Below the pieces are notes generated by a model, which was not told the origin of the DNA, ran no database searches, and saw only the letters and a list, made by a program, of their open reading frames with translations. A DNA stretch of 64,000 nucleotides, taken from an uncultured Gammaproteobacteria bacterium. GTDB taxonomy: Bacteria; Patescibacteriota; Patescibacteriia; Magasanikbacterales; GWA2-37-8. Position numbers and translations under genes: made by a program. Shown in pieces: positions 958 to 38,783 of the stretch. The stretch lies in the NCBI GenBank assembly GCA_964465205.1, contig CAYXJO010000007.1, forward strand, positions 5,228 to 69,227, in the 5' to 3' direction. Each line of letters begins with the position of its first letter. The first letter of the stretch is position 1.

Positions 958-2832
958 TTATAGCGCAATCTCATCACCCATAAAGTCTATACTTTGCCCG
1001 GTAACAGTATCATCGGCCGTCACATGTACTTTACCCACCACCATATTTTGAGTAGGATTTTTCTTGTTGAGCACCACATTCAATGGTAGTGCCAATACAT
1101 CTACTCCTTCCGGCATTTCCGGCACGGTCCAAGTAATCTTCTTTTCTGCGTCATCGAATTTTACTTCGCCGGCCGGGACATTTTGGGGGGTAGTAAAAGT
1201 AGTGTCGCCATAGATGTTTGCCGACAATTTTATATTTTTTAGCGCGTGAAAATTATTGGTGATAATCCACTTGATATCATAGGCGTCTTTTCCGTCCGCG
1301 CTGTTTACGCTGTGGCGATTTTCAAACTTTAGATCCGAATTCAAGGTGACAGTAATCGGCGCCGCGTTGATTGTTTGGTTCGCACCCGTACCATCGGTGT
1401 AATTGATTTTTGCGCCAATAACTACTTTGGATTCGACAAAATCCGACAATGTGGCAGTGTCGGCGTCTTTGATTGGCAAGCTAAAGTCAATGTTTATCTC
1501 GTTGCCGGGTATTATTTTGGCGAGTTCGGGTACTTTGCTGGTGTTCCAAATTATTTGCCCGCGTCGCACAGTATCACTTAATTGTTGCCCGATGATGTCG
1601 GCGTCATATTTATCATTGATCGCTTTCCAGTTCAGCAAACTTTGATTTTTTAGCGACGGCGCGTCGATATTTATTTTTACTTGTGCTTTTTTCATGTCAG
1701 TTTCGCCGGTGTTTTTTATATTGAGTGTGAAGTTCAAAGTATCACCGGGTTGTGTGGAGAAGTCTTTCAGATTACCGTTTATGGCTACACTAAAATTGGT
1801 TACATTATTTACCAGCGCGATCGGCAAATTATTTTCCGCGATTTTGAATTCCTGATCCAATAATTTTATGGGCAAAGACAAGGCCGCGCGCATAGGTTCG
1901 GTCGAAGATGTGGAACTATCGGAATAAGTGCCGCGCAAAGTAAATTTATAGCCAGACAATGGCGGCGTGCTTGTACTATTTGGGTTGAGTATTACTGTCC
2001 AGCGATTTTTTTCCAATTTGGGACTAGAAGTAACCAAATGAAAATTGGTCGGCAGTACCGGATCTAAATATAAATTTTCCGGTATCCAGTTGCCGGAATT
2101 TTCTAACGCGAAAGTATATTCCACTTCACTGCCAACCGTGGCTTTGTCCGGGCCGGTAATTTTTACGGCTAATGGCGACTTATCCATTTGGAGGTTGAGT
2201 ATGGCTGTTTTTTGTAATTCGGAATTAAAGTTTTCCGGTTGATAGTTCAAAAACACGCGCCAAGAACTCGCCTGTTCGGAAGCGCCATACATTTTGCCGG
2301 TGATAGTAATAGAATTTTTTTTGTAAGGCACTAGAGTGCCCAGGTCCCATTCGGTATGGCCGCCGTTTTTGGCGGGGATGGAGCTGTCGATAAATACAAA
2401 CCCATCGGGATAACGTATGCTTAGTGAGGCGTTCTTTAGATTAATGTTTTGATTGTTGCGGTAGTCGATTTTATAGGTGGTGGTAGCGCCCATGGTCGCG
2501 TTCACAGGTCCGTCGACCGTCAGCATCACTTGTGAGTCAGAGAATTTGTTGCTAGTGGGTAAAATAAAAAATCCAACCCAGGCTGCGGCTGCTAGTACCC
2601 CGCTCAAGATCAACAGAGAAGCAAAAAACCTAACTACAGGATGATTTTGTTGTTTATCTATTTTTTTCATATTGGGCAATCGACCGGCATCGTCTTGATA
2701 AATGGCGTTAATCGCGCGGTTGATTTCCGGGGCGTTGGAGGTTTTCTTGACAGCTGGCTTTCGGGGCGCGCGTTTTTTTGGCTTTGGCTCTGGAGCAATA
2801 TCTTGAGTAGAGAATTCAGGTGTGTCTGGCAT
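958..2832 (-). CDS. Hypothetical membrane-anchored cell-surface protein (basic cytoplasmic tail, one TM, large extracellular beta-rich CARDB/DUF11-like region)
   Basis: A 624-aa ORF with ATG start, TM segment VVRFFASLLILSGVLAAAAWVGFFIL, and a long T/N/S-rich extracellular part typical of CPR surface proteins. Confidence 0.6.
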   Translation of the reverse strand: MPDTPEFSTQDIAPEPKPKKRAPRKPAVKKTSNAPEINRAINAIYQDDAGRLPNMKKIDKQQNHPVVRFFASLLILSGVLAAAAWVGFFILPTSNKFSDSQVMLTVDGPVNATMGATTTYKIDYRNNQNINLKNASLSIRYPDGFVFIDSSIPAKNGGHTEWDLGTLVPYKKNSITITGKMYGASEQASSWRVFLNYQPENFNSELQKTAILNLQMDKSPLAVKITGPDKATVGSEVEYTFALENSGNWIPENLYLDPVLPTNFHLVTSSPKLEKNRWTVILNPNSTSTPPLSGYKFTLRGTYSDSSTSSTEPMRAALSLPIKLLDQEFKIAENNLPIALVNNVTNFSVAINGNLKDFSTQPGDTLNFTLNIKNTGETDMKKAQVKINIDAPSLKNQSLLNWKAINDKYDADIIGQQLSDTVRRGQIIWNTSKVPELAKIIPGNEINIDFSLPIKDADTATLSDFVESKVVIGAKINYTDGTGANQTINAAPITVTLNSDLKFENRHSVNSADGKDAYDIKWIITNNFHALKNIKLSANIYGDTTFTTPQNVPAGEVKFDDAEKKITWTVPEMPEGVDVLALPLNVVLNKKNPTQNMVVGKVHVTADDTVTGQSIDFMGDEIAL

Positions 2833-2862: not shown

Positions 2863-5490
2863 TTATTTATTTTGAGCGAGCAGGCTCCAAATATAATCTT
2901 TGTCCAGATTCATGTTTTCAATGGCTACGCCGTTGGCGGCGATTTTGATATTATGGCCGTCTTGCCAAATCGGTTGCCAGCCGGTGGGTAAAATTATCTG
3001 GCTTTCAAAAGTGCTATTCGCGCCCGATTGATTTTGGGTTACCAGTTGATATTTCAAAGCGGTCTTTAGCTCGTTCCCCAAAAATAAATTTTGCCAACCA
3101 GCCGCCGGTGTATCAGCAGAATAAATTTTGGCTTTGAATGGCAGGCGATAGACGAAATGCACTTGGGTGGTTTGGCCCGGTTCGGTGATCACCCAATTGC
3201 CAAAAGCGGTTTTACCGAATTCATTGGTGATGCGCGTGCCACTTTTGTTGTCGATGCTAGTCTCCTTTTCGATTTGCGCCAAATCCGCGTCTTTTTTGGC
3301 CCATTTATCAGGAGCACGGAAATGACTTTCGTCTGGCCAAGTGAACCCGCTGGCTTCTATTAGTTCGCTGTTGGCCGGTACATAGATTCGTAAATAATCC
3401 ACATTGTTTACTCCGTATAAATCTTCGTTCGTGTTACCCGTGTGGGCACGAGTGATAATTACCGTGTCGGTAATACTACCGTCGTCATTGATAACCGCTT
3501 GATGACTAATGGTTTGGTTTATGCGGGCGTCGCTTTTTTGTCCACCGATGTTAGTGTTGACTACCATCAGATAATCTTGCTCGGAGTTAGTGTCCGCAAT
3601 TTCTCCGCCCCAGCCGTATTTTTTGATTGTTTGTTCCGTATCGTAATCGGTAAAATAAGCTTGGATATCTTTTTGGCGCAAAGCATCTTGTAAATTGGTG
3701 AGAATTGGTACGATATATTCCGGTTTAATATTTTGAAAATATTCCAAAAATTGCGGTGCCAAATCCGCGATAATTTGTTTGGGCTTTTTGGTAGCGCGTG
3801 TAGAAGTACTTTCTACTTCTTGTTGAATAGTGTCGAGAGCATTGTCGGCAGAAATAGTGATATCTCGTTTTTCATCTTGAATCGGACCAATGATGCCGAG
3901 CAGTCGTTCCAGCACCGAAGCGTTTATGGCCACTACGCCATCCACTGTGATTTCGCGGCTTTTACGATAGAACCACATCATTTTCTGGGCGCTTTTGGGG
4001 AAATCTGGATACCAGTTACTGTCTTGAAACTGCCATTTATCATTGATAAGTAGTAGTGGGGTTGGCGGTTCAAGTCGTTCGCTTAGTTGTCCTTTTAGAT
4101 CATAAGATCCGCCCGGCGGTATGCTCATATTGATAATTTTGCCGTCGCGTACTTCTAGTAAAGCAAAGCTTCCCACAAAACCACCGGTCGGCCGTAGCTC
4201 GCTGGGATTTTGGAAGACCAGCAAATAACGACGCAAACCTTGGCCGCCAAATATTTCTTTTACGGTTTTACCCAACTCGGATAAATTTTGTAAGTCATCT
4301 AAAACAGTAGTAAATAGAACCTTGAAATCTTTAAATGGCGCTTGATACTCTAGTGGTAGTGTGTCTTCATCTACGGTGCCGAGGTCCTTGAGAGCCGCAT
4401 GATAATTTGGCAGTGCGGCATCCAAATGCTTGATTACCAGATCCAGTCGATCTGTCATTTTGCCGTTGTTTTCTTTTTGGCTTTCAGATAATCCTTTGAT
4501 CAGGTAAGTGTTACCCAAAGCAATTTTTTGTCCAGCCAAGATTAGTTGTTGGCGACTAGTCACTTCGTTGCCAATCATTGGGATGGCCGAAGTCATTTTT
4601 TGTAGCCATTGGTGCTTGGTCTCCATGGTGTCGATGGCGCCGGCAAATTTATTGAGAGCGGTATTAAGAGAATTCTGTGCTCCGTTGATATCGGCATGTA
4701 ATATGGCTGCGGTGGATTCTTGCAACGACATGAAACCTGTCCGACCATCGGACGCGATTTTTTCGGTGGTGAGACGGACGTTGCGATAATAAGAATTGGC
4801 TTGAAATGGGGCGATTAGTATAAGCGCTAAAGCTGCGATAGCGAAGGCGATTTTTTTCCAAGGCAGATTATGTAATGTATTGGTGACAGTAGTCGTGATC
4901 CAGTTTTGAATAATTGTGACGGCTCGGCCGGATAGGGGTTTAAATTCAATGTGTTTTTTGACAGGTTGCACGCTCGGCAGTTCGTTATTGTGTTCGAAAA
5001 CATTGGTGGCGGGTATGCTGTCACGAAAAACAACTTCGTGGGGAGTGAACTGTTCATCTGTGTCCACCCAATTGGTGTGGCGATGCACGTTGATGGTGGA
5101 TTCGACTGGTGGCGATACTGGGATAGATGGTTTGGCCAGGGGAGTTTGGCACGGAAATACCCGGTTTGGTTTTTCGGCTGTTGTTTTGGTCGGTGCCTCT
5201 GGTTTGGATTGATGATACGAATGATAAAGCGATTCGGTCTCGTTGGGTGCAAATGACGCGATTTTTTCTAGCAGATCTATTTTTGGTTTTTTGAGATCCA
5301 AGACATGAGGGGACTGGTGTGGTTCGTGCGCTACGTGATGAATATAAAAATTTAGCCCAGTCTTGGGTGGTTGGACGGTATTGTTTTGAGTTTGTAGAGA
5401 CGAAAATTTTACCGGACAAGTAGATCTGTTGTGTCCGGGCTTGTTACAAACGGAACAAACACGAAGTTGTGCTCGTTTTGTCTTGGGCAT
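2863..5490 (-). CDS. DUF4012 family membrane protein with N-terminal CCHC zinc-knuckle motif
   Basis: An 875-aa ORF. N-terminus CSVCNKPGHNRSTC fits CX2CX4HX4C. Has a TM helix IAFAIAALALILIAPF. Contains the DUF4012 hallmark LVFQNPSELRPTGGFVGSFALLEVRDGKI. Confidence 0.7.
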   Translation of the reverse strand: MPKTKRAQLRVCSVCNKPGHNRSTCPVKFSSLQTQNNTVQPPKTGLNFYIHHVAHEPHQSPHVLDLKKPKIDLLEKIASFAPNETESLYHSYHQSKPEAPTKTTAEKPNRVFPCQTPLAKPSIPVSPPVESTINVHRHTNWVDTDEQFTPHEVVFRDSIPATNVFEHNNELPSVQPVKKHIEFKPLSGRAVTIIQNWITTTVTNTLHNLPWKKIAFAIAALALILIAPFQANSYYRNVRLTTEKIASDGRTGFMSLQESTAAILHADINGAQNSLNTALNKFAGAIDTMETKHQWLQKMTSAIPMIGNEVTSRQQLILAGQKIALGNTYLIKGLSESQKENNGKMTDRLDLVIKHLDAALPNYHAALKDLGTVDEDTLPLEYQAPFKDFKVLFTTVLDDLQNLSELGKTVKEIFGGQGLRRYLLVFQNPSELRPTGGFVGSFALLEVRDGKIINMSIPPGGSYDLKGQLSERLEPPTPLLLINDKWQFQDSNWYPDFPKSAQKMMWFYRKSREITVDGVVAINASVLERLLGIIGPIQDEKRDITISADNALDTIQQEVESTSTRATKKPKQIIADLAPQFLEYFQNIKPEYIVPILTNLQDALRQKDIQAYFTDYDTEQTIKKYGWGGEIADTNSEQDYLMVVNTNIGGQKSDARINQTISHQAVINDDGSITDTVIITRAHTGNTNEDLYGVNNVDYLRIYVPANSELIEASGFTWPDESHFRAPDKWAKKDADLAQIEKETSIDNKSGTRITNEFGKTAFGNWVITEPGQTTQVHFVYRLPFKAKIYSADTPAAGWQNLFLGNELKTALKYQLVTQNQSGANSTFESQIILPTGWQPIWQDGHNIKIAANGVAIENMNLDKDYIWSLLAQNK

Positions 5491-15339: not shown

Positions 15340-15455
15340 ATGGCGCTATCATAGCGGATTTTTGGCTTAAAATCAAGGTGGTCGCGGGATATAGACTTTT
15401 GGGTCAAAATATGGTATAATATAGATGTAAGTTTGTAGTTTTTAACCATAATTAT

Positions 15456-15659
15456 ATGGCCGAAAAAATGGAAAAGCCAGTGGGAGAAAATTTTTGTGAC
15501 CAGTGCGGCAATCGTTTGCCGGGGCATATGCCCGGGTGTGCCAAATCCCCACGCGAACCAGGGAGACACGATGTAGTATTGGATATGAAAGCCATGCCAG
15601 ACAATACACCTTCTGTTCCGAAACGCCCTCGTGGTGAATTTCCGCAAATGCAGGCGTAA
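15456..15659 (+). CDS. Small putative zinc-ribbon protein (67 aa; CDQCGN...C), GC-rich
   Basis: An extended -10 (TGgTATAAT) lies about 35 nt upstream. CxxC plus further Cys/His. A strong terminator hairpin follows at 15676-15712. No clear SD. Confidence 0.3.
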   Translation: MAEKMEKPVGENFCDQCGNRLPGHMPGCAKSPREPGRHDVVLDMKAMPDNTPSVPKRPRGEFPQMQA

Positions 15660-15675
15660 AATAAAAATTGAATAA

Positions 15676-15712
15676 AAAAGAGGACGGTGGCAGCCGTCCT
15701 TTTGTTTTGGTT
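15676..15712. terminator. Bidirectional intrinsic terminator (aggacggtggcagccgtcct flanked by A and T runs)
   Basis: Perfect 8-bp stem with T-runs on both strands. Lies between convergent ORFs 15456..15659 and 15742..16710. Confidence 0.6.
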
Positions 15713-15741
15713 TGTTTTTGCCCACTGCCATGGGGCACAAG

Positions 15742-16710
15742 TTAGTTGGTCGTCGGGCATTCCAGGGCAACACATTCTTTGTCGGAGATGTTGTCGCACC
15801 AGAACGACTGCGGTTGATCATCGATCGCGGGGTCGATGGACATGTCTCCCGAATTCCAGATGAAATCCGGCGCGTCAGTGTCTTGGAAATCTGTGCAATT
15901 GCCGGCGTCCCAGACGATGTCGGCGACGCGGAGCACTTGGTGATCTACACCAAACTCAATGGCGTAGGTGGCGCAGGGCGTGCCATTGATATTGACCACC
16001 ACCGTGACTTCGTACGGGACAGTGAAGTCTCCTTTGAGGTCGTTGCTGTCGTAGTAGGCTACCGCGACGCGCAGTCGCATACCAACTTCCGGTTCAGCGC
16101 GCACGATAATTGTTTCTTCGTGCACGTCATTGGGACAGCCGCTTGTTTCCTGACAGCCGACGTTGTCCATATCCTTTTCGCACCAGGAAGTTTGATCGTT
16201 GTCTGTTCCGCACGAATCGTCGTGCGCATCATTGCTGTGATAGGTACAATATTGTACCTTGGTCTTTTTGTCCCATCCCTCGCTTACTTCAAATTCGGAG
16301 CAGAAATTGCCGTTCGGGCAATCACTGTCCGATTCGCATTTTATACGACGATCTTCCGGGTCGACCAAAGTCGGAGTCCCTGGCGTGTCGCCGTATCCAG
16401 CGTTGACTCCCCAGCTGCCGCATGGGCGGTGCTTGGTGAGGGAGATGTCTAGGTCTGGCATGCCTCTCCACGTGAGTGTGACTTCGATCGGGTGGGCCGG
16501 TTTGCCCTCGGCTTCTTCCTCCGCGGCTACATCTTCGTCACTGTCACCGTCCGTCGAGTTGTCGCCATCAACACTTTCGTCGCCGTCGACCGAAAGATTT
16601 TCGTATCCGCCGACTATAGTCGTGCCGCAGGCGGCAAAAAAGCAGGAAAGGGCCAGAATGATCAGGGTTGCAATGGCTTTGAAATTCAGAATGGCTTTGA
16701 AATTCAGCAT
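15742..16710 (-). CDS. Cys- and Asp-rich secreted lipoprotein-like protein (signal peptide ending FFAAC); markedly GC-rich
   Basis: ATG at 16710 has AAGGAG 8 nt upstream. MLNFKAILNFKAIATLIILALSCFFAACGTT is followed by D/G-rich repeats (DGDESVDGDNSTDGDSDED) and many Cys. GC is around 55 percent against about 42 percent genome-wide. The plus-strand ORF 15712..16452 is an antisense shadow. Confidence 0.5.
   Translation of the reverse strand: MLNFKAILNFKAIATLIILALSCFFAACGTTIVGGYENLSVDGDESVDGDNSTDGDSDEDVAAEEEAEGKPAHPIEVTLTWRGMPDLDISLTKHRPCGSWGVNAGYGDTPGTPTLVDPEDRRIKCESDSDCPNGNFCSEFEVSEGWDKKTKVQYCTYHSNDAHDDSCGTDNDQTSWCEKDMDNVGCQETSGCPNDVHEETIIVRAEPEVGMRLRVAVAYYDSNDLKGDFTVPYEVTVVVNINGTPCATYAIEFGVDHQVLRVADIVWDAGNCTDFQDTDAPDFIWNSGDMSIDPAIDDQPQSFWCDNISDKECVALECPTTN
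16672..16707. repeat. Perfect tandem duplication (2 x 18 bp, aatggctttgaaattcag) inside the signal-peptide coding region
   Basis: Encodes LNFKAI twice. A candidate slipped-strand variable site. Confidence 0.6.
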
Positions 16711-17024
16711 GATCCGTGCTCCTTTGCGGTATGTTCCCATTCGGGTCACCGCATGATTGATCTGTCAGCTAACTTGGTTTGTAACGAGCATGGCTTTTTA
16801 TGGCCAAAATTAGATTTTTGTGAAAAAGTCCAATTTTTGCCTTAAAAAGCAGAAAACTCCCAGATTGAAGAGAGTCTTTAAATATTTTTGGCTAAAATAA
16901 GCCTAATTTGTGGTTGTGCATAATGCTCTCTCTTCATTATTTACAACTGATTATTATAGCACATTTTTGCCCTTTTGTCAAGAGGATGATATAATATGGA
17001 TGTTTTTAGAAAAAAATTAAAACT

Positions 17025-18089
17025 ATGGGAAATATTAATTTTTCTTACTTCGGTTTAGTGATTGCAATTGTGGCGGTGTTGATTTATTTAGCGGTAAAAA
17101 ACAAGAAAGGCGGATTGCCAAAATTGAGCGGTGGCAGTACGCCTTTTTTAGATTCTTATGCTACGGATTTCACAGCGATGGCGCGTCAAGGACGGCTTGA
17201 TCCGGTAGTGGGGCGTGAAGAAGAAGTACGCAAGTTAGCTCAGACACTTTCTCGTAGAGAAAAAAATAATGCGATTCTTATCGGAGCGCCGGGCGTGGGC
17301 AAGACTGCGATTGTGGAGGCATTAGCTTTGCGAATAGTATCGCACGATGTTCCGGACGAACTGTGGAACAAGCGCGTGCTAGCGCTGGATGTTGCGACTT
17401 TGCTTTCCGGTACGAAATATCGCGGTGAATTTGAAGAGCGAGCAAAAAAAATCGTGGCCGAAATCGGCGCTTCCAGTCGTACTATTATTCTGTTTATCGA
17501 TGAAGTACATGCGGTGGTGCAGTCGCATGGTACCGAAGGCGCGGTAAATTTTTCGGATATTTTGAAACCTGCCCTCGCGCGCGGTGATTTGCAAATGGTG
17601 GGAGCTACTACTACGGCCGAGTATGAGAAATATATCAAGACCGATTCGTCGCTTGAGCGCCGCTTCCAACCTATAGAAGTGAGCGAGCCGACCGAAGAAC
17701 AGACCATTGGAATTTTGAAAGGCGTGAAAGACAAGTATCGCGAGTATCACAAAGTAGAGTTTACCGATGCGGCTTTGGCTACGGCGGTAAAATTGTCTTC
17801 TGAGTTGGTGAAAAATAGGAAGCTGCCTGACAAGGCGCTTGACGCGCTCGATGAATCGGGTGCGATGGTAAAAGTTTCGCATGTACACACCAGTATTCCC
17901 TTGGTGCTTTATCAGGTGGCGGCGGAAAAACATCCCGAAGCGGCTGATATTTGGAAAAAAATTCAAGAGTTAGATGCGAGTGGTGCGAACGAGGAACGCG
18001 AAAAGCTGGAAGCTGATCTGGAAAAATTGGGTGTGGTGACGGTGGATAGCGCCGACGTGGAGAAGGTGATACGGGATTGGAAAGAATAG
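17025..18089 (+). CDS. Membrane-anchored AAA+ protein: a Clp/Hsp100 (ClpB/ClpC-like) first nucleotide-binding domain only
   Basis: N-terminal TM helix FGLVIAIVAVLIYLAV, then LDPVVGREEEVRKLAQTLSRREKNNAILIGAPGVGKTAIVEALA...ILFIDEVH...ARGDLQMVGATT, nearly identical in pattern to ClpB NBD1. Ends ...VTVDSADVEKVIRDWKE, which resembles the segment just before NBD2. No NBD2 follows. Confidence 0.7.
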   Translation: MGNINFSYFGLVIAIVAVLIYLAVKNKKGGLPKLSGGSTPFLDSYATDFTAMARQGRLDPVVGREEEVRKLAQTLSRREKNNAILIGAPGVGKTAIVEALALRIVSHDVPDELWNKRVLALDVATLLSGTKYRGEFEERAKKIVAEIGASSRTIILFIDEVHAVVQSHGTEGAVNFSDILKPALARGDLQMVGATTTAEYEKYIKTDSSLERRFQPIEVSEPTEEQTIGILKGVKDKYREYHKVEFTDAALATAVKLSSELVKNRKLPDKALDALDESGAMVKVSHVHTSIPLVLYQVAAEKHPEAADIWKKIQELDASGANEEREKLEADLEKLGVVTVDSADVEKVIRDWKE

Positions 18090-18267
18090 GGTGTACATAA
18101 TTAAAATTGTTGGGAGGGCGCAAGTGTGGTATAATATAAACGATTTAAAAATTTGGAGAAAGTTTTAAATTTCTCCGTAATCATATTATAATGGGCTTTG
18201 CCCGTGTATTCTCATTCGTTTGGAAAAGATTAACCACATTTAATCTTTTCTCTCACTCATTTCTAAT

Positions 18268-19776
18268 ATGGTGGAAACACTCACCAAAGTGGCCACGAAA
18301 AGTATCACGAGTACCAAACTCGCGATTGCCACACTCGCTGCACTCGCGGCGGGAGGAGCGGCGTTTGCCGTGGCTCCCCCGGTTTTTTTAACCGGACCGG
18401 ATTTGATCGTGTCCGATATAGTTTTTGACAATGCTGCCAAGAAAGCCACGGTTACTGTGAAAAATATTGGCAAAACAAAATTAAATACTGCTGAAGTTGC
18501 CACTGCCTGGTCTACGACTATCATCCCAAACAGCAAGCCTCGTTTGGTGAGTGGTTTAAATCCCGGGGTGGCTGTTAATTTCGTTTTACCATATCCGGCT
18601 AGAATTCCTTCTGCTTTAACAGCGACGATTGATCCTAACAATAAAGTAAAAGAGATGAGAGAGAATAATAATACCTTGACTAAGACCTTACCGTCTTTTT
18701 GTTCCGATTCTGATAACGGTTTAGATACTACCGTCGTCGGTACTATGAGAGGATGTCAGTTTGAAGATTGTGCGACCATTATGTCGCATACTGATTGTTG
18801 TACTGTTCTTACTAGTGTTGGTACCACTGGATGTACTGCTACGGGCACGCATTTGTTGGAGGGTACTTGTACTGGTAATGTAGGGATGGTTCCATTAGTT
18901 GAATGTAAGAATGGTTGTGCAAATGGTGTTTGTTTAGATTTGCCAGATTTAACTATTTCTGACGTAGCCTTCAATTCTTATCCGACTGAACCAATTGTTG
19001 TGACTATCAAAAATATTGGTAATGGAAATTATGATCCTACAATTAGCACCTGTGCTACTACTAAGGTATATTTTTTGGATAAGAATTTTGCCGTGTTGGG
19101 TGAAGCGGTACCAAACATTCAAGGGGGATGCCAATTATTTGTTGCTTTAACACCCAACAGTAGTGATGCTGTTGGGTATGTGCTAGACGGAGTAGATTAT
19201 CTAGATAACGTTGAGTGGGTTAAGGTGGTCATTTCAAGCCCCTACAATCACGTGGTGGAATTAAGAGAAGATAACAACGAGAGTGTCGTGCGTTTACCTA
19301 AGGATCGATTAAACACGATTAGGCTTCGAGCAGAAGTAGACCAACCGCGATCTGTGCAGTATGGGGCCAATCAGACTTTAGCTATATTTGATTCCGAAGG
19401 GGCCAATGGTTCGGATGCCTATCCTTTTAATGATGACAACAATAATCCAGACCTACGTAGTCTGGTGGTGACAGTTCTAACCAATATCCCCAATCAGTTG
19501 AATAATTGGAAGTTGGTGAATGGCGGTCGAATATTTTCCGGATCTTGGGACGAAACCAAGCAGCGAATTATTTTCCGCAATCTAGATGGAGACAGGTTGG
19601 GAATGTCACAGTTTACAATAGCGGCGGATATTATGATGGTAAGTAGTACGTTTTCCGATGCCAAAGTACAATTGTTAATTGCGTCGCCTGGTGACTTGAC
19701 TACTGATGCCATAGCAACAGAGTTCATTGATACAATTTTCCCGGTTACGGCCAGAGAGATGAATCCCCAACCATAA
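18268..19776 (+). CDS. Secreted or surface protein with signal peptide, CARDB-like repeats and a Cys-rich central region
   Basis: KLAIATLAALAAGGAAFAVA signal. Motifs VKNIGKTKLNTAEV and VTIKNIGNGNY are CARDB-like. Has its own promoter (TGgTATAAT) upstream. Confidence 0.55.
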   Translation: MVETLTKVATKSITSTKLAIATLAALAAGGAAFAVAPPVFLTGPDLIVSDIVFDNAAKKATVTVKNIGKTKLNTAEVATAWSTTIIPNSKPRLVSGLNPGVAVNFVLPYPARIPSALTATIDPNNKVKEMRENNNTLTKTLPSFCSDSDNGLDTTVVGTMRGCQFEDCATIMSHTDCCTVLTSVGTTGCTATGTHLLEGTCTGNVGMVPLVECKNGCANGVCLDLPDLTISDVAFNSYPTEPIVVTIKNIGNGNYDPTISTCATTKVYFLDKNFAVLGEAVPNIQGGCQLFVALTPNSSDAVGYVLDGVDYLDNVEWVKVVISSPYNHVVELREDNNESVVRLPKDRLNTIRLRAEVDQPRSVQYGANQTLAIFDSEGANGSDAYPFNDDNNNPDLRSLVVTVLTNIPNQLNNWKLVNGGRIFSGSWDETKQRIIFRNLDGDRLGMSQFTIAADIMMVSSTFSDAKVQLLIASPGDLTTDAIATEFIDTIFPVTAREMNPQP

Positions 19777-19790
19777 TAATTGATTTTGTC

Positions 19791-19832
19791 CACCCCGCCA
19801 CTCGCGGGGTGGTTTTGTTTTTGTTGTTAAAT
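19791..19832 (+). terminator. Intrinsic terminator (ccaccccgccactcgcggggtgg then T-run)
   Basis: Hairpin immediately after the stop at 19776, followed by ttttgtttttgtt. Confidence 0.6.
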
Positions 19833-25466: not shown

Positions 25467-27578
25467 ATGTACTATACACAAGTGCGAAAAATATCGGTAA
25501 CCTGGCTGGTTTTGGCCATTATAGTCGGGTTGGTGGGAGGTTTTTATCCTGGCAGTATCAATTCGGTAAACGCCGCTACCGCCAAGCCTGTATCCAAAAC
25601 AGTGGTAAAAAAACCAGCGACCACCAAAAAAGTTGTCTCTACCAAAAAACCAGCGACCACTTTTAAACAAATCAAAAAGTTTACTTCGGCCAATGATTTC
25701 AAAAATTATGTCATGAAAGGACTCGCCCTGCAGTCCAATTCGTATTCCATGGGGCGAATGAATTTTTCACAGACGACTGCCGAAGTGGCTTTATCTGCAG
25801 CACCGACTATCAATGCAATTAGTGAAAGTGATTTGGGTTTGTCGTCTGGTGCCAAAACCGGTCTGGCCATGAGCCCAAATCCGGCATCAGATTATTCGTC
25901 CACCAATGTACAAGTTTTGGGTATTGATGAGCCGGATATTATCAAAAATAATGGCAAAGAAATTTTTTATTCTACTTGGAGCGTGACACCGGTGGTGAAG
26001 CCGGACAGCTCATCGTCTTTGGCGGTGGCACGACCGGATTATTGGCGTCAATCTGGCGAGACCAAGGTGATCAACGCTTTCCCGCCGGAAGATTTAAAAA
26101 TGATTACGACGATTGATTTAAAAGGAGATTTACTTTTGAGCGGTAACAATTTGGCGGTGTTTACCTATGATAAAATTGTGGGTTATGACATCACCGATCG
26201 CACGAATCCCAAAGCCAAGTGGACGATAAAATACGAAAATAACAACAGACTGGTGGGGGCGCGTTTGTATCAGGGTAAAATATATTTTGTCACTCGACAA
26301 GATATTAATGTGGAAAATCCGTGTCCGATACGACCACTATCTGTGAATGGTATGACCACCGAAATCGTTTGTGCCAATATTTATCACCCCACTGCTTTTG
26401 CTCCGGTGTCCAATGTATTTTCGGTGTTTAGTTTGGATATGAATACGGGCGCAGTGCTCAACAAAAATTCTTTTGTCGGCACCGACAGCTATCAATCGGT
26501 GTTGTATTTTTCGCCTAATGCGATTTATGTAACGTATTATACCGCCGGCAGTGTGTTTGAACGTAATTATTTATTCTTGACCGAAAATGCCGACATGTTA
26601 CCGGCCGGAATAGTAGAAAAATTAAAAAAGTTACGCGGTTATGACATCAGCGACCAAGCCAAGTTATACGAAATGGAATACTTATTGCAGACTTGGGCGT
26701 ATAGTTTGGATCAGAATAGTAACAAAGATGCCAAATTAAAATTGGAAAATGATTTGAACAATCGCGTAGATAAATTTTATGCGCGCCATTTGCGTGAATT
26801 CGAAAAAACCGGAATTGTGAAAATTGGCTTGGATGGTTTGCAGGTGGTGGCGGTAGGGGAAGTGCCGGGGCAATTGTTGAATCAGTTTTCTCTGGATGAA
26901 TATGGTGGTAATTTGCGCGCCGCCGTGACGGTGGGGCAGCGCGGTATGTTGATTTTTGACAACTGGAATAGCCAAAATACCCGTAATGATGTTTATGTGT
27001 TAAATGGCAGTATGCAAACGGTGGGTAGTGTGAAAGATCTGGGCAAAACTGAACGGATCTATTCGGCGCGATTTGTAGGTGATAGGGGATATCTGGTCAC
27101 ATTTCGCCAAACTGATCCATTCTATGTGTTGGATTTGTCCGTGCCTAACAAACCAGTGGTAAAGGGTGAACTCAAGATCCCCGGATATTCTTCTTACCTA
27201 CATCCATTGGGCGAACATCGCGTGTTGGGTATTGGCAAAGAGGACAACAAAGTAAAGGTATCATTGTTTGATGCGAGCGACCCCGCCAATCCAACCGAGC
27301 TCTCTAAATATATTCTAAATGAATATTGGTCGGAGGCGATTAATAATCATCACGCGTTTCTATCCGACAGTCGCCATCAAGTATTCTTCTTGCCTGGTTC
27401 GCAGGGTGGATACATATTCTCGTATGCCAATGGTGAATTGAAGTTGTCCAAGGCCGTGAGCGATATCAATCCAACCCGAGCATTATATATGGACAATTAT
27501 CTATATATTGTGGCCGAAGATAAAATGGTGGTGCTAAATGAGCTTACTTGGGAAAAGGTAAACGAGTATTCGTTCTAA
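25467..27578 (+). CDS. Large secreted protein with C-terminal beta-propeller-like domain (Beta_propel/PF09826-like)
   Basis: Signal-anchor VTWLVLAIIVGLVGG. C-terminal YLVTFRQTDPFYVLDLSVPNKPVVKGELKIPGYSSYLHPLG resembles the YL.TF..DPLFVIDLS.P....GEL...G.S.YLHP signature. Confidence 0.45.
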   Translation: MYYTQVRKISVTWLVLAIIVGLVGGFYPGSINSVNAATAKPVSKTVVKKPATTKKVVSTKKPATTFKQIKKFTSANDFKNYVMKGLALQSNSYSMGRMNFSQTTAEVALSAAPTINAISESDLGLSSGAKTGLAMSPNPASDYSSTNVQVLGIDEPDIIKNNGKEIFYSTWSVTPVVKPDSSSSLAVARPDYWRQSGETKVINAFPPEDLKMITTIDLKGDLLLSGNNLAVFTYDKIVGYDITDRTNPKAKWTIKYENNNRLVGARLYQGKIYFVTRQDINVENPCPIRPLSVNGMTTEIVCANIYHPTAFAPVSNVFSVFSLDMNTGAVLNKNSFVGTDSYQSVLYFSPNAIYVTYYTAGSVFERNYLFLTENADMLPAGIVEKLKKLRGYDISDQAKLYEMEYLLQTWAYSLDQNSNKDAKLKLENDLNNRVDKFYARHLREFEKTGIVKIGLDGLQVVAVGEVPGQLLNQFSLDEYGGNLRAAVTVGQRGMLIFDNWNSQNTRNDVYVLNGSMQTVGSVKDLGKTERIYSARFVGDRGYLVTFRQTDPFYVLDLSVPNKPVVKGELKIPGYSSYLHPLGEHRVLGIGKEDNKVKVSLFDASDPANPTELSKYILNEYWSEAINNHHAFLSDSRHQVFFLPGSQGGYIFSYANGELKLSKAVSDINPTRALYMDNYLYIVAEDKMVVLNELTWEKVNEYSF

Positions 27579-31974: not shown

Positions 31975-32403
31975 ATGCCTACTCTAAGCCAAATCATGCG
32001 CAAGGGTCGCCATCCAAAAGTGACGAAGAGCAAATCTCCGGCACTCATGGCTGGTATCGACAACTTGCATCGTCGCAAGACCACGTTTGATCGCGGTTGC
32101 GCTTTCAAACGCGGCGTGTGTACCAAAGTGTACACTACCACTCCGAAGAAACCGAACTCGGCTCTTCGTAAAGTCGCCAAGGTTCGTCTTTCCAATGGTA
32201 TGGAAGTAATCGCCTACATCCCAGGTGAAGGTCACAATTTGCAAGAGCACTCCATCGTGCTTATTCGTGGTGGCCGTGTAAAAGATCTTCCGGGTGTACG
32301 CTATCACATTGTTCGTGGTGTATATGATGCGCAAGGTGTCGAAGCGCGTCGCCGCGGTCGTAGTGTGTACGGCGCCAAACGTCCGAAAGCTGCTAAGAAA
32401 TAA
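31975..32403 (+). CDS. rpsL: 30S ribosomal protein S12
   Basis: [23 protein letters not shown]...[19 protein letters not shown] is canonical. It carries an about 15-aa insertion ([20 protein letters not shown]) relative to E. coli. Confidence 0.92.
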
Positions 32404-32414
32404 TCTGTAATTTT

Positions 32415-32891
32415 ATGCGTGGAAAACAAGCAAAAAGACGCGACATTAAACCCGATGCCAAATACGGCAGCGTAGTTCTTGCTCGCTTTATCAACTGTGT
32501 AATGTTAAATGGTAAAAAGACGGTTGCCCAAGATATTGTTTATACTGCTTTGGACAAAATGTCCGAGACTCTCAAAAAAGAGCCGGTCAAAGCATTCGAA
32601 GAAGTGATTCGTACCGTCGCCCCTCAGGTGGAAGTTCGCTCCCGCCGTGTGGGTGGTGCCAACTACCAAGTACCGATGCCGGTGCGCGGTGATCGCCAAT
32701 ATGCGCTCGCTTTTCGTTGGATTATTGGTGCCGCGCGCGCTCGCAAAGGTCAACCGATGGCCAATAAATTGGCCCAGGTTTTGATTGATACCCTCAATGG
32801 CGTGGGTGATGCTATTCGCAAACGCGACGATGTTCATCGTATGGCCGAAGCCAACAAGGCTTTTGCTCACTTTGCTCGCTTCGCTAAATAA
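32415..32891 (+). CDS. rpsG: 30S ribosomal protein S7
   Basis: 158-aa ORF in the conserved position. Matches an S7-like N-terminus and the C-terminal KAFAHFARF. Confidence 0.9.
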
Positions 32892-32905
32892 TTATCATTA
32901 TATAT

Positions 32906-34984
32906 ATGCCCCGTGAATATTCATTAGACAAAACTCGCAACTTTGGTATTGCCGCTCACATTGATGCCGGCAAGACCACTACTACGGAGCGCGTGCTTTT
33001 TTACACCGGTAAAAAATACAAAATCGGCGAGGTGCACGAAGGTGCGGCCGAAATGGATTGGATGGAACAAGAAAAAGAGCGCGGTATTACTATTACTTCC
33101 GCCGCGACTACTTGTTTTTGGAAAGATCATCGCATGAATATCATCGACACTCCTGGCCACGTAGATTTTACCGTCGAGGTGGAGCGCTCGCTCCGTGTAC
33201 TCGATGGTTCGGTCACTGTATTCGATGGTTCTCAAGGTGTGGAGCCGCAGTCCGAAACTGTCTGGCACCAAGCCGACAAATATAATGTCCCGCGTGTTTG
33301 TTTCATCAACAAGATGGACAAAATGGGTGCGGATTTCTACATGAGTCTTGCTTCCATTCACGAACGTCTCTCCAAAAATGCTTTTGCTATTCAACTTCCG
33401 ATTGGCGCCGAGTCCACTTTTTCTGGCCTCGTTGATTTGATCGAAGAAAAAGCTTACAAATTCGAAGGTAAAAACGGTGAGAACATTATTGAGATTCCGA
33501 TTCCGGAAGATATGAAGGATCAAGTAAAAGATTATCGCGCCAAAATGATTGAAAAAGTTGCCGAAGCCAACGACGCGACCATGACCAAATATCTCAATGG
33601 TGAAAATTTTACTGTTGATGAAATTCGCAAAGCTATTCGCGAACTTACTATTTCCGGCCGCGCTTACGCGGTTATCTGTGGTTCCGCTTTGGGTAATATT
33701 GGTGTGCAGTTCATGTTGGATTCGGTGGTGTGGTATTTGCCGGCTCCGACCGATTTGCCAGAAACCAAAGGCACTGACCCGAATAATGAAGATGCCCCGA
33801 TTACCCGCAAAGCCAGCGATGAAGAACCGTTTTCCGCTTTGGCTTTCAAGGTGACCACCGATCCGTTTGTGGGTAAATTGGTTTTCTTCCGCGTGTATTC
33901 CGGCAAGGTCTCCGCTGGTAGTTATGTGTACAATTCTTCTACTGGTGAAAAAGAACGTTTGGGCCGCGTAGTGCGCATGCATGCCAATCATCGCGAAGAT
34001 GTAACCGATGTGTACGCCGGTGAAATCGCCGCCGCCATTGGTTTCAAAAATGTGCATACCGGTGATACTTTATGTGATGAGAATAAACCGATCGTTTTGG
34101 AAAAAATTGTGTTCCCGGAACCGGTTATCTCGATCGCCATCGAACCCAAGACCAAGGCTGACCAAGAAAAAATCGGTTTGGCTATGCAGAAATTGGCCGA
34201 AGAGGATCCAACCTTCCGCGTACATACTGACGAAGAGACTTTGCAGACTATTATTTCCGGTATGGGCGAATTACACCTCGACATTATCGTGGATCGCATG
34301 AAACGCGAATTCAAAGTGGAGGCCAATGTGGGCAATCCGCAAGTCGCGTACAAAGAAGCGATCAAAGCTAGTGCCGAAGCCGAAGGCAAATATATCAAAC
34401 AGTCCGGCGGTCGTGGTCAGTACGGCCATTGTTATTTGCGCGTTGAACCGAATGAACATGGTAAGGGCCTGGAATTCATTGATGAGATCAAAGGCGGTGT
34501 GGTCCCGCGCGAGTATGTACCAGCTATCGAAAAAGGTGTGAAAGAAGCCGTGTCTCGTGGTATCCTCGCCGGCTACGAAGTGGTGGATATCAAAGTCACT
34601 TGTTTCGATGGTTCCTACCACGAAGTGGACTCTTCCGAAATTGCCTTTAAGATGGCGGCTATCATGGCTTTCCAAGCTGCCTGTAAGAAGGCTAGCCCGG
34701 TAATCCTCGAGCCGATTATGAAAGTTGAAGTTCTGACTCCAGAGCAGTACATGGGCGAAGTTATTGGTGACCTGAATTCCAAACGTGGTCAGATTCAAGA
34801 AATGACTGATCGCGGTAGTATGAAAGTGGTACGCGCGATGGTACCTTTGGCCAGCATGTTTGGTTATGTCACTTCCTTGCGTTCCATGAGTCAGGGTCGT
34901 GCTAGTTCCAGTATGGAATTTGATCACTATTCTGATGTGCCGAATAATGTAGCGACGCAGATTATTGAAGGAAAGAAGAAGTAA
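32906..34984 (+). CDS. fusA: Elongation factor G
   Basis: [26 protein letters not shown] and full five-domain length (692 aa). The antisense ORFs 32924..34057 and 34271..35005 are shadows. Confidence 0.95.
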
Positions 34985-34989
34985 ATTTT

Positions 34990-35100
34990 TAAAAAGCCGG
35001 CACAACTGATATTTTTTCGCTTTTTTCGCGCGCGAGCGCGAAAGGATGATCCGGTGGGATCATAACCCGCGAAAAAGCATCAGTTGTGCCGGCTTTTGTT
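34990..35100 (+). repeat. Structured repeat element copy 4: outer stem aaaaagccggcacaactgat/atcagttgtgccggctttt enclosing the core TTTTTTCGCTTTTTTCGCGCGCGAGCGCGAAAGGATGATCCGGTGGGATCATAACCCGCGAAAAAG
   Basis: Hairpin 1 stem is CGCGC/GCGCG rather than CGCCC/GGGCG (compensatory), with the GCGA loop kept. Hairpin 2 is ATGATCC/GGATCAT (compensatory). AACCCGC is conserved. Sits directly after the fusA stop. Confidence 0.85.
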
Positions 35101-35339
35101 TTTGCTGTGGAGTGGGGGTATAAAAATGTATTCATTCTCTTTTTTTGTTGGGCGAAGAGTGTGCGAATGTAAATCCGATCGGAAGTAATCATACCGTATC
35201 TTTTTGTTGACAAAATCTGTAATAAGTAGTTTATTATATACTCAAGCGCTCTTTACAAAGCAATATCCGTGAGCGCGAGAAACTGACAGGTGTCGGTTTT
35301 TTGTTTCATGGGTATTTAAAATCAAACAGGAGGTGGGCC

Positions 35340-36731
35340 GTGACTAAATTGAAAGAAGAATGTGCGGTATACGGTGTATGCGGTTATCATAATGCGGTCA
35401 ATCCTGTGGTTGAAGGACTGTATTCTCTGCAACATCGCGGGCAAGAAGGGAGCGGAATCGCAGTGGTGGCTCCAGATAGCCAATTGATCGTGGTGAAAAA
35501 GCCCGGGTTGGTGAGCGACTCTTACGGAGAATTAGAACGCCGGAAGTTGGCTGGTAAGGTGGCCATTGGCCACACCCGCTATTCGACTGCCGGCGGCTTG
35601 TCGCTTCTCAACCCCCACCCCTTTGTGGTGAACAACCCGCCCTTGGCCGGTTGTTGGAATGGCAACATTCCGCGCCCCACCTATGATTACTGGCGAGATT
35701 ACCTCAAAGATAAGTGGTGCGATTTCGACACCGAGAACGACGGCGAGTTGTTGGTGCGCCTGTTGGCACACCGACTGTACTCTGGCGACGACATGGTCGC
35801 CGCCGTGCGTTGGCTGTTCCAAAACGTGACTGGTGCTTACTCCGGTCTACTGCTCCATGACGGCAAAATGTACGCCGTACGCGACCCGCTCGGTTACCGG
35901 CCGTTGGTCTTTGGTGACCGCGGCAAATCTTGGGTGGTCTCTTCAGAGACGGTCGGGCTCGACATTATCAAAGCCCGGCATCACCAAGAAGTGCAACCCG
36001 GCGAACTCGTGGAATTCGCGGTTGGGCAAAAGCCGATACACTACCAATTGGCCCAGAGCGACCTGCGTCGATTCTGCATCTTCGAATTGATCTATTTCGC
36101 TCGGCCCGATTCGGTCGTGTTCAACATTCCGGTGGGGCATGGCTTTCGTCGTGCACTCGGTAAACGCATGTACCATCAGTACGGATGCGATCTGGATATC
36201 GACGTGGTCATCCCGGTGCCAGACTCGGCCAACGATTTTGCACTCGGCTATCACGAGGCCTCGGGAGTACCGCTCGGCTTTGGTCTGCGTCGCAACCATT
36301 ATGTCGGACGTACCTTCATCGAGCCCAAGAAAAAACGCGCGCCCAAAGTGCGCCGCAAGCTCAACCCAGATCGCGCCGTGATCGCTGGTAAACGCGTGCT
36401 GATTATTGACGATTCGATCGTTCGTAGTACCACGATGCTCAAAATCGTGCGCATGCTACGTCGCAACGGTGCCAAAGAGGTGCATGTGCTTATCGGTTCG
36501 CCGCTAATCACTCATTCGTGTTATTTTGGTGTCGATACACCAGATCGCGATGAATTGGTGGCGGCTCAAAATGATGTCGATGGCATCCGTCGTCTGATCG
36601 AGGCGGATACGTTGCAATATGTCACCATTCAAGATTTACGCAGTACCGTGCTTGATTTGGGTGCAAAGCCTGATCATTTCTGCGGTGCGTGCTTTAGCGG
36701 CGACTACCATCCGACGCCGGTTCCAGGCTAA
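35340..36731 (+). CDS. purF: Amidophosphoribosyltransferase (glutamine PRPP amidotransferase)
   Basis: Ntn Cys in EECAVYGVCG after a short propeptide, then LQHRGQEGSGIAV, and the PRTase motif VLIIDDSIVRSTT. GTG at 35340 has AGGAGG 6 nt upstream. The listed ATG 35301 is in frame as an alternative. Confidence 0.8.
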   Translation: MTKLKEECAVYGVCGYHNAVNPVVEGLYSLQHRGQEGSGIAVVAPDSQLIVVKKPGLVSDSYGELERRKLAGKVAIGHTRYSTAGGLSLLNPHPFVVNNPPLAGCWNGNIPRPTYDYWRDYLKDKWCDFDTENDGELLVRLLAHRLYSGDDMVAAVRWLFQNVTGAYSGLLLHDGKMYAVRDPLGYRPLVFGDRGKSWVVSSETVGLDIIKARHHQEVQPGELVEFAVGQKPIHYQLAQSDLRRFCIFELIYFARPDSVVFNIPVGHGFRRALGKRMYHQYGCDLDIDVVIPVPDSANDFALGYHEASGVPLGFGLRRNHYVGRTFIEPKKKRAPKVRRKLNPDRAVIAGKRVLIIDDSIVRSTTMLKIVRMLRRNGAKEVHVLIGSPLITHSCYFGVDTPDRDELVAAQNDVDGIRRLIEADTLQYVTIQDLRSTVLDLGAKPDHFCGACFSGDYHPTPVPG

Positions 36732-36757
36732 ACCACCCGTTAGATAAGGAGTAAAAC

Positions 36758-36795
36758 TCTCCCGGCAGGCGTTCGCGCTTGCCGGATTTTTTAAA
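36758..36795 (+). terminator. Intrinsic terminator after purF (ccggcaggcg ttcg cgcttgccgg then T-run)
   Basis: 10-bp stem with one G-U pair, followed by attttttaaaattt. Confidence 0.55.
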
Positions 36796-36902
36796 ATTTG
36801 ACGCCATTTTTTTCGTTTGATATAATCCCAGACGATAAGTCGGGCTTAGATTGTTCCAGTTTTATAAACTAAACCCGCGTCCTATTTTTCAACTATTTTT
36901 TT

Positions 36903-37400
36903 ATGAAAGAAAAACAGCTTAATAGAATCATGCGTTTGGTGCGCAATACCGGTGATCGATTAGTGATTTTGGATCGCGAGTCAGACGAAACCATGGTAAT
37001 GATGAATCTGGATGAATATGAAAATTTGTTAGAAGGCGGATGTGATTGTGGCTGTGATGATGGCAATGACGATTGGGGGCGAGAAGATGATGAGGTTGAA
37101 ATTAACAATGATTGGGTAGAGCATGAAGAAAAGATTAATCATCCAGATGCTTCGTTAGATGACTCTATTTCTGCACCAGATGCAGAAATAGATCTGCCAA
37201 CAGATTATGCAGAGCCGGACGTTCCACCGGCGGAAGAACCAACCATATCGCCGTTGCCAGACACAATTATAAAATCCGAAGTAAGACCGTTGCGTTCTGG
37301 TAGTATGGACAGTATTGGGGCTATTTTAAACGAAGAACCTTTGAGCGATGTGCCCCATGAAGAAGCCGAAGAGCCATTTCTCCTCGAACCGGTGGAATAA
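36903..37400 (+). CDS. Acidic hypothetical protein with Phd/YefM-antitoxin-like N-terminal segment and a long D/E-rich tail
   Basis: RLVRNTGDRLVILDRESDETMVMMNLDEYENLLE resembles the YefM/Phd fold start. CDCGCDDGNDDWGREDDE and an acidic tail follow. No toxin partner is adjacent. Confidence 0.4.
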   Translation: MKEKQLNRIMRLVRNTGDRLVILDRESDETMVMMNLDEYENLLEGGCDCGCDDGNDDWGREDDEVEINNDWVEHEEKINHPDASLDDSISAPDAEIDLPTDYAEPDVPPAEEPTISPLPDTIIKSEVRPLRSGSMDSIGAILNEEPLSDVPHEEAEEPFLLEPVE

Positions 37401-37419
37401 TCCACAATCTATCCCCAAA

Positions 37420-37455
37420 GCCGCCCTTGACAAATCGGGCGGTTTTGTTATAATA
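37420..37455 (+). promoter_or_regulatory. Terminator hairpin (gccgccc...gggcgg then T-run) with an embedded consensus promoter (TTGACA - 16 nt - TATAAT) for tuf
   Basis: aaagccgcccTTGACAaatcgggcggttttgtTATAATaatc. The -35 element lies in the hairpin loop. Confidence 0.55.
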
Positions 37456-38773: not shown

Positions 38774-38783
38774 ACGGATAAGT

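Follow-up and report, generated by a model that had tools for sequence, protein, structure and literature searches.

Our analysis suggests that the gene at positions 17025 to 18089 of a 64-kb (64,000-nt) stretch of contig CAYXJO010000007.1, which we call the window and to which all coordinates refer, encodes a membrane-anchored AAA+ ATPase consisting of a transmembrane (TM) helix and the first nucleotide-binding domain (NBD1) of a ClpC-type Hsp100 protein. The ATPase belongs to a family found in bacteria of the Candidate Phyla Radiation (CPR; Patescibacteria), and its gene is very probably paired with a neighboring gene whose product begins with a short Thr/Lys-rich tail and an uncharged stretch of 19 residues. 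The partner link is the most informative clue to the function of the ATPase.

RESULTS

Predicted architecture of the ATPase

The features of the ATPase gene are listed below.

17025..18089, +, ATPase gene: ATG start, 354 aa, predicted membrane-anchored ClpC-type NBD1-only AAA+ ATPase
17043..17108, +, predicted N-terminal TM anchor (residues 7-28) replacing the Clp N-domain: AlphaFold2 (AF2) helix, hydropathy, positive-inside statistics of 120 relatives
17283..17306, +, Walker A GAPGVGKT (residues 87-94): read in the sequence, G87 and G90-T94 invariant in 117 sequences
17415..17426, +, pore loop 1, K131-Y132-R133-G134, with the putative substrate-gripping tyrosine: invariant in 117 sequences, present in 120/120
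17499..17504, +, Walker B D159-E160 (ILFIDEVH): invariant in the family alignment
17658..17663, +, arginine fingers R212-R213 (LERRFQ): invariant in the family alignment
17691..17915, +, NBD1 lid domain AAA_lid_9 (residues 223-297): Pfam E 1.2e-21
17910..18026, +, short ClpC-like M-domain coiled coil (residues ~296-334): AF2 helices 296-302, 304-319, and 323-334, and ClpC alignment
18030..18086, +, last NBD1 strand and helix, GVVTVDSADVEKVIRDWKE: AF2 strand 338-340 and helix 342-353, predicted local distance difference test score (pLDDT) about 87-94

Pfam finds AAA (residues 84-197) and AAA_lid_9 in the protein, and no match to Clp_N, AAA_2, ClpB_D2-small, or Peptidase_M41. The NCBIfam models for ClpB, ClpA, ClpV, ClpG, and ClpK match in their NBD1 part only (the ClpB profile at 156-445 of 853), and the scores are below the equivalog cutoffs (355 versus 1232 bits for ClpB and 321 versus 993 for ClpA). 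The ATPase thus lacks four defining features of class I Hsp100 proteins: the N-domain, the second nucleotide-binding domain (NBD2), D2-small, and an equivalog-level score. It shares 54-57% identity with the NBD1 of ClpC and ClpB, and the top matches among solved structures are ClpC of Staphylococcus aureus and Bacillus subtilis (residues 156-454, E 3.5e-87). The AF2 model, built on 117 relatives (pLDDT 86), has a helix at residues 7-28, a disordered linker at 27-36, a complete NBD1, a helical hairpin at 296-334, and a final strand and helix at 338-353. Foldseek superposes this model on the NBD1 and M-domain of ClpC, with an E value of 1.7e-31 and TM-scores as high as 0.75.

Residues 1-39 comprise the TM helix and a basic, Gly-rich linker, with KNKK directly after the hydrophobic helix. 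In the 120 relatives, a mean of 0.3 positive charges precedes the TM helix and 3.6 fall within the next 15 residues. This asymmetry predicts an N-out, C-in topology and so a cytoplasmic ATPase domain. Hydropathy, the positive-inside rule, and the AF2 model together predict a single N-terminal TM anchor followed by a cytosolic AAA domain.

The original prediction, made from the letters of the window, had placed a TM helix where the Clp N-domain would be, which is borne out by the AF2 model, hydropathy, and the missing Clp_N match. The near-canonical Hsp100 NBD1 that it described, with Walker A and B, sensor, and arginine finger, is also confirmed by motifs that can be read in the sequence and that are invariant in the family. 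Its likening of the protein to ClpB needs revision, as the short M-domain and the best PDB and Foldseek matches put the ATPase closer to ClpC than to ClpB.

The gene ends at the NBD1/NBD2 junction

The C-terminus of the ATPase (...VTVDSADVEKVIRDWKE) lines up with the element that closes NBD1 in full-length Clp proteins, as expected from the original prediction that the protein stops where NBD2 would begin. Within the family alignment, D341 of this element is invariant and W352 is present in at least 90% of members, and the close relatives all end at the same position as the window ATPase. The absence of a following NBD2 open reading frame (ORF), likewise predicted, holds as well: in tblastn searches of the window, four full-length ClpC/ClpB proteins match NBD1 only, and the gap of 178 nt to the next gene is too short for a hidden domain. 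No NBD2 was found in seven related 21-kb loci either. Without NBD2, the ATPase has neither the ClpP-docking loop nor the D2-small domain. Window positions 16064..18194, stop codon included, recur without a difference in a contig from a separate assembly (Logan SRR11845629, L001), whose reads are possibly shared with the source assembly.

A conserved family in CPR bacteria

A search of 5.8 billion proteins returned relatives of the same size. The best 120 clusters are 293-413 aa long (median, 368; nearly all about 355-385 aa), share 56-87% identity with the window ATPase, and nearly all carry a hydrophobic N-terminal segment. The named close relatives are "AAA family ATPase" proteins of Candidatus Magasanikbacteria or Patescibacteria. 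In an alignment of 117 sequences, Walker A (G87 and G90-T94), Walker B, the sensor-1 residue T195, K131/Y132/R133/G134, and R212/R213 are invariant. The set of residues predicted to serve ATP binding, ATP hydrolysis, inter-subunit contact through the arginine fingers, and substrate gripping is thus complete by sequence. The dN/dS ratio is 0.04-0.08 against relatives of 81-87% identity, which shows that the family architecture is under strong purifying selection.

A profile search of 1.84 billion cluster representatives added at least 12 further 50%-identity clusters with a TM helix and NBD1. The M-domain varies in length among these distant clusters, and they end at a "...V(D)..D(I/V)..V...W" element; named members come from Candidatus Uhrbacteria, Candidatus Doudnabacteria, and "Patescibacteria group." The plan of TM helix plus NBD1 is therefore kept in related CPR genomes, with the same truncation.

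A neighbor-joining tree of the NBD1 core groups all 26 TM-type sequences (26/26) into a single clade and separates them from 60 full-length Clp proteins. The family probably arose once, though this is not established. On sequence grounds, the family appears to derive from a ClpC-type Hsp100 that keeps NBD1 and a short M-domain and in which the TM helix replaces the N-domain. Its members are currently annotated as "AAA family ATPase" or "hypothetical protein," or wrongly as "ATP-dependent Clp protease ATP-binding subunit ClpC/ClpA." In the literature that we searched, no Hsp100 of CPR bacteria is described as NBD1-only or membrane-anchored, and the tail module presented below does not appear; the sole match for Magasanikbacteria concerns modular type IV pilins, which are unrelated. 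PADLOC gives weak generic AAA matches for the ATPase (at most 25 bits) and none for the partner.

In two proteins that apparently come from other lineages, P0182 (712 aa) and P0251 (564 aa), an NBD1-only Clp module is followed at its C-terminus by TM segments and a large extracytoplasmic or multi-pass domain. In these proteins, the ATPase occupies the position of the partners' Thr/Lys tail.

The partner gene and its N-terminal module

The gene downstream of the ATPase in the window has the following features.

18268..19776, +, partner gene: 502 aa, predicted N-in signal-anchored protein with a CARDB domain
18268..18381, +, N-terminal module: tail MVETLTKVATKSITSTK (residues 1-17), uncharged 19-aa stretch LAIATLAALAAGGAAFAVA (residues 18-36), then PP
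18397..18684, +, CARDB domain (residues 44-139), predicted to be extracytoplasmic: Pfam E 7.9e-11

The consensus of the module in 32 sequences is M.T.T.T.T.SITNTKLAVAT.A.LAAGGLAFA..P. The tail is 16 aa long (interquartile range [IQR], 15-17), with 34% Thr, 17% Lys, and a net charge of +2, and the uncharged stretch is 19 aa long (IQR, 19-19), with Pro next in 34/40 cases. The conserved A-F is followed by A, I, L, M, or V, and the -1 position is not consistently small. A length of 19 aa suits a TM helix better than a signal-peptide core, and this, together with the lack of a consistent -1 residue, leads us to read the module as a putative uncleaved N-in signal anchor. The module may instead be a cleavable Sec signal peptide, which would have a hydrophobic core of about 7-15 aa with a small-x-small site after it. 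A type IV pilin class III signal was considered and rejected: the module has no Gly at -1, no Phe/Met at +1, no Glu at +5, and no N_methyl match.

The bodies behind the module differ. They range from nearly nothing, in proteins of 51-80 aa, to 1060 aa, and their domains are otherwise unrelated (CARDB, parallel beta-helix/NosD, leucine-rich repeat [LRR], and Cys-rich). Among 375 pairs of ORFs, all selected by the motif, 96% show higher conservation over the first 38 aa than over the body (50% versus 28% identity). Pfam and NCBIfam scans of ten partner proteins find body domains only and no model for the N-terminal module. A 43-aa motif profile searched against the 5.8 billion proteins retrieved only 15 short Patescibacteria proteins, with a prefilter that is ill-suited to a low-complexity motif.

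Tiny tail-TM proteins of 53-80 aa occur in tandem in some loci (L089, 11594..11836; L120, 1058..1498; L121, 2528..3349). Several tiny ones have a second, C-terminal hydrophobic segment ending in ...EY(S/A)I(L/I)...SK, which suggests two-TM hairpin mini-proteins. Larger partners have common C-terminal endings, ...NGLPL.PKTL.Y or ...GLP...F....LAY (L090, 3002..4525, - strand; L100; L114; L116; L088, 12027..13373, - strand), which hint that the far end holds another conserved element.

The ATPase and the module are linked across loci

The peptide YHKVEFTD is specific to the family; it occurs in 95/117 members and is absent from 80 ClpC/ClpB loci of unrelated phyla, which were retrieved via the universal Clp peptides KYRGEFE and SDILKPAL and served as the negative set and as the source of full-length references. 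Back-translated, YHKVEFTD retrieved 36 metagenome loci. In the first eight loci (four, then four more), the neighbor gene, which in the first four lay directly downstream on the ATPase strand, shared the N-terminal motif in 8/8 cases, with bodies that differ. With a hidden Markov model (HMM) trained on 12 N-termini, 45 distinct ORFs of CPR loci reach 19 bits or more, and nothing in ~1.2 Mb of non-CPR Clp loci exceeds 8.3 bits. The HMM gives 59 bits to the window partner, its sole match in the window. This single occurrence (at 18268), despite the other secreted proteins encoded in the window, argues that the motif is not the generic signal peptide of the lineage.

Among 40 unique loci, 30 have a motif ORF within 400 nt of the ATPase gene on the same strand (26 downstream and 4 upstream), and 35 have one anywhere in the available sequence. 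Of the 5/40 loci without a motif ORF, 2 have less than 650 nt of downstream sequence. Motif ORFs concentrate near the ATPase, with a density within 3 kb that is 28-fold that found farther out (41 in 175 kb versus 2 in 240 kb). The pair is kept in at least nine different genomic settings and extends to ATPase family members sharing about 45-50% identity. All four distant TM-plus-NBD1-only members that could be placed on contigs (4/4) are followed on the same strand by an ORF with a Thr/Lys-rich tail and a TM segment; two examples of these N-termini are MPNGTTTKTKVATQTKVIIAVGALLLL... and MKTKVKTKLSTKQKVMVGVTAAVLLF... No third conserved gene was found beside the ATPase; the remaining synteny, with tgt and uvrD, is at the level of lineages. 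We are highly confident that the pairing of ATPase and partner is real.

In one subgroup (L005, 7052..13681; L088, 4712..9493), genes for HSP20 and for a VanW-domain protein adjoin the ATPase gene, ClpP is encoded at a distance of 2-5 kb, and type IV secretion system-like genes (TraC-like, VirB4/DUF87, and PrgI) lie within 10 kb. In this lineage, such a neighborhood may point to a connection with stress or the envelope. PF05635 genes (23S rRNA intervening sequence proteins) recur in the loci (L088, 4318..4674 and 15372..15725; L127, 19475..19756).

Transcription signals and surroundings

The following signals flank the two genes in the window.

16967..16995, +, promoter-like site: TTGCCC, 17-nt spacer, TG-TATAAT, ~30 nt upstream of the ATPase start, a consensus pattern match only
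18164..18192, +, promoter-like site in the 178-nt gap: consensus scan
19790..19822, +, strong intrinsic-terminator-like hairpin 3' of the partner: 9-bp stem with 8 GC pairs, T-run

A scan of the window detected no strong terminator between the ATPase and partner genes, and a terminator only after the partner is consistent with one transcription unit. The original prediction had described what follows the ATPase as a promoter and a surface-protein gene; promoter-like sites and a CARDB protein are indeed there, and what the plain label of a surface protein overlooked is the conserved tail-plus-TM module. Inspection by eye of the region upstream of the ATPase gene revealed no CIRCE heat-shock operator. 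The intergenic RNA (18080..18275) folds better than shuffled sequences (z = -2.96), with two AT-rich hairpins, neither with a U-run. As called mechanically, the uvrD ORF begins within the terminator, at GTG 19809, and the L002 orthologue points to the ATG near 19911 (MSIDFQKELNKEQLD...) as its likely true start.

Upstream, the divergent gene at 15742..16740 (- strand) encodes a protein of 332 aa with a lipobox-like N-terminus (...LSCFFAACG), an acidic stretch, and many Cys residues. It has no significant Pfam match and is not conserved beside the ATPase elsewhere. Three other envelope-type proteins are encoded in the window, all without the tail module: a DUF11/CARDB protein (958..2829, - strand), a DUF4012 protein with an N-terminal zinc knuckle (2863..5487, - strand), and a 703-aa beta-propeller protein (25467..27575, + strand). 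Positions 31975..50085 hold a standard rpsL-rpsG-fusA cluster and a cluster of ribosomal-protein genes, secY, adk, and map. These ribosomal-protein clusters and the GC content of the window (43%) fit a small CPR genome.

DISCUSSION

Our results suggest that CPR bacteria encode a putative single-ring motor of the Hsp100 type that is tethered to the membrane and coupled to a small set of tagged proteins. A single-ring membrane-tethered unfoldase, the second of two alternatives offered by the original prediction, fits the architecture that we describe. We propose that a hexameric ring with its entry face at the membrane grips the tails of the partners and pulls on them, without a protease, and we consider the chances of this proposal to be a little short of even. 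Six ATPase subunits, concentrated by their TM anchors, would form one ring under the membrane; the arginine fingers R212-R213 imply ATP sites between subunits and thus an oligomeric ring. In ClpB and ClpC, the N-domain lies on the entry face, and here the TM helix with a linker of ~12 residues stands in its place, which would turn the substrate-entry face of the ring toward the membrane. Hsp100 rings thread substrate from the N-domain/NBD1 face toward NBD2 (PMC6593972). TM segments promote hexamerization of FtsH-type AAA proteases, and TM anchors can drive hexamerization of AAA rings, as in YME1L (PMC5095350); Msp1 is an N-terminally anchored single-ring extractase (PMC12624790). Membrane tethering could likewise supply the local concentration that an isolated NBD1 needs for ring formation.

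The 16-residue tail of a partner would lie in the cytoplasm and would be about long enough to reach the tyrosines of the KYR pore loops. The ring would bind the tail and, driven by ATP, pull it away from the membrane into the cytoplasm, so that the ATPase would act as a dedicated dislocase or tension motor for tagged membrane proteins. Possible outcomes would be turnover, release, insertion quality control, or firm cytoplasmic anchoring of surface proteins. A separate enzyme would have to carry out any degradation, as the ATPase has neither a ClpP-docking loop nor a protease domain. For the tiny tail-TM proteins, full extraction would be mechanically easy. With large folded ectodomains, it is more plausible that the motor works ahead of insertion or in its course, sets off turnover, or does no more than keep hold of the anchor.

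The resemblance of the ATPase to ClpC and ClpB lies in the Walker motifs, the KYR pore loop, sensor-1, the double arginine finger, AAA_lid_9, and a short ClpC-like M-domain. In contrast to those proteins, it has no Clp N-domain, NBD2, D2-small, or ClpP-docking loop, scores far below the NCBIfam equivalog cutoffs, is predicted to be anchored in the membrane, and has a dedicated gene partner. SKD3 (human CLPB) and the torsins are Hsp100 proteins that work as one ring, and torsins are membrane associated. However, both are derived from NBD2, whereas the ATPase aligns to NBD1 positions only, and torsins have neither the pore-loop aromatic nor an arginine finger of their own, whereas the ATPase keeps the full catalytic set. 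We know of no NBD1-only Hsp100 that has been described.

With respect to organization, the predicted architecture is close to that of Msp1/ATAD1, which has a single N-terminal TM anchor, one cytosolic AAA ring (predicted here), aromatic pore loops facing the membrane, no protease domain, and single-pass clients with a short cytosolic end (putative here). What speaks for a threading ring in the ATPase is the invariant pore loop and arginine fingers. Msp1 nevertheless belongs to the classical/meiotic AAA clade, and the ATPase is an Hsp100 NBD1; the clients of Msp1 are C-terminally tail-anchored and are recognized as mislocalized, whereas the putative clients here are tagged N-terminally and encoded beside the motor. 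FtsH and the mitochondrial i- and m-AAA proteases also have a membrane-anchored AAA ring with an entry pore at the membrane surface. FtsH dislocates membrane proteins by pulling on a cytosolic tail of about 20 residues. Unlike the ATPase, FtsH has two TM helices, a classical AAA domain with AAA_lid_3, and a fused M41 peptidase; a normal FtsH gene is present in at least one related genome (L087).

The short module on unrelated surface proteins recalls the terminal modules of the sortase/LPXTG and exosortase/PEP-CTERM systems and the KxYKxGKxW leaders of accessory Sec, in which the gene for the cognate factor also lies beside one or more clients. The module here differs in being N-terminal and facing the cytoplasm, and the factor is an AAA+ motor rather than a transpeptidase or a SecA paralogue.

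Several points weigh against the proposed tail-pulling motor. We infer, rather than observe, the hexamer, ATPase activity, tail binding, and pulling. By analogy with ClpA constructs that contain domain 1 only, a ring of NBD1 alone should unfold substrates only weakly. The NBD1 of ClpB and ClpC oligomerizes poorly as an isolated fragment (compare ClpC1, PMC3527473). Pulling a large Cys-rich or beta-helix ectodomain through the bilayer would be difficult. Adjacency of genes indicates a functional link without a direction, and the tail-TM proteins might serve as subunits, adaptors, or regulators rather than as substrates. No motif ORF is present in three loci whose flanking sequence is adequate (L108, L109, and L126), and the enrichment of motif ORFs near the ATPase counts related loci as independent, so that the nominal binomial P of 4e-57 overstates it. 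The bootstrap value for exact monophyly of the TM-type family in the neighbor-joining tree is weak (22/100), and the search for NBD2 covered the window and seven 21-kb loci rather than whole genomes.

Among other explanations, we regard a role in export or assembly as unlikely, though it deserves serious attention. Here, the tail would be a sorting signal and the ATPase would keep pre-proteins unfolded for Sec/YidC, or the tail-TM proteins would be subunits or adaptors of an ATPase complex, with the larger paralogues displaying ectodomains from the ATPase hub. One N-terminal module on unrelated bodies is what sorting signals look like, and a processing factor is encoded beside one client in sortase- and exosortase-type systems, as the ATPase is here; the tiny, sometimes tandem partners (L089, L093, L119-L121, L129, and L130) suit subunits better than substrates. 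However, few motif ORFs lie at a distance from the ATPase (2 in 240 kb), and the window has just one despite its other secreted proteins, which argues against a general export route, and an entry face at the membrane, as deduced from Hsp100 structures, would thread a chain into the cytoplasm and not out of it. A general membrane-proximal chaperone or disaggregase for envelope quality control, whose neighbors are co-regulated envelope proteins and not specific clients, seems to us less probable still. The closeness of its NBD1 to general unfoldases (54-57% identity to that of ClpC/ClpB) and the subgroup beside HSP20 and near ClpP (L005 and L088) agree with such a role, which would also account for the three loci without a motif ORF, but it leaves unexplained why a specific, geometrically constrained module is kept through at least nine contexts and at 45-50% family identity.

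The ATPase might also be half of a split Hsp100, with NBD2 encoded elsewhere and joining in trans to give a two-ring ClpC-like machine that possibly docks ClpP. Its end lies exactly at the NBD1/NBD2 junction, and ClpP is present in related genomes. We nonetheless consider this very improbable: neither the window, the seven 21-kb loci, nor the conserved neighbors contain an NBD2, the partners of split genes are usually adjacent, a TM anchor replaces the N-domain, and the only conserved partner is the tail-TM gene. The other alternative in the original prediction, a decayed clpB remnant, and the frameshift or assembly error that it named as what would refute it, can be given hardly any credence, whether the full-length ancestor was clpB or clpC. 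The truncation itself, and nothing else, speaks for such an origin; the same C-terminus recurs in more than 120 clusters and the same plan in distant CPR lineages, the catalytic residues are invariant, dN/dS is 0.04-0.08, a second assembly is identical, and no NBD2-like sequence lies downstream in any frame. By these sequence comparisons, the truncated ATPase appears to be a functional member of its family, neither a remnant nor an assembly error.

The textbook forms of Hsp100 are two-ring machines or single-ring machines of the NBD2 type. If the tail-pulling motor exists as proposed, NBD1 can act as an autonomous motor, and bacteria have a counterpart of the eukaryotic Msp1/ATAD1 extractases. 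There is a realistic chance that this is a new kind of client-dedicated membrane AAA+ system, and its genetic coupling to a short cytoplasmic tag offers a ready client and a recognition signal, which makes the system testable in vitro. In a broader sense, it is possible, though we hold the idea tentatively, that CPR bacteria have an unrecognized AAA+-driven sorting or dislocation system, composed of an NBD1-only Hsp100 ring and a tag of "Thr/Lys tail + 19-residue TM + Pro," that governs the placement, anchoring, or removal of a few surface proteins. CPR bacteria make up a very large, mostly uncultured share of bacterial diversity and are apparently attached to hosts; those in cultivation are obligate episymbionts. 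The pair of ATPase and partner is a candidate component of surface-protein management, which is largely unexplored in these bacteria, and the tagged surface proteins (CARDB, beta-helix, LRR, and Cys-rich) may include adhesins that episymbionts use on their hosts.

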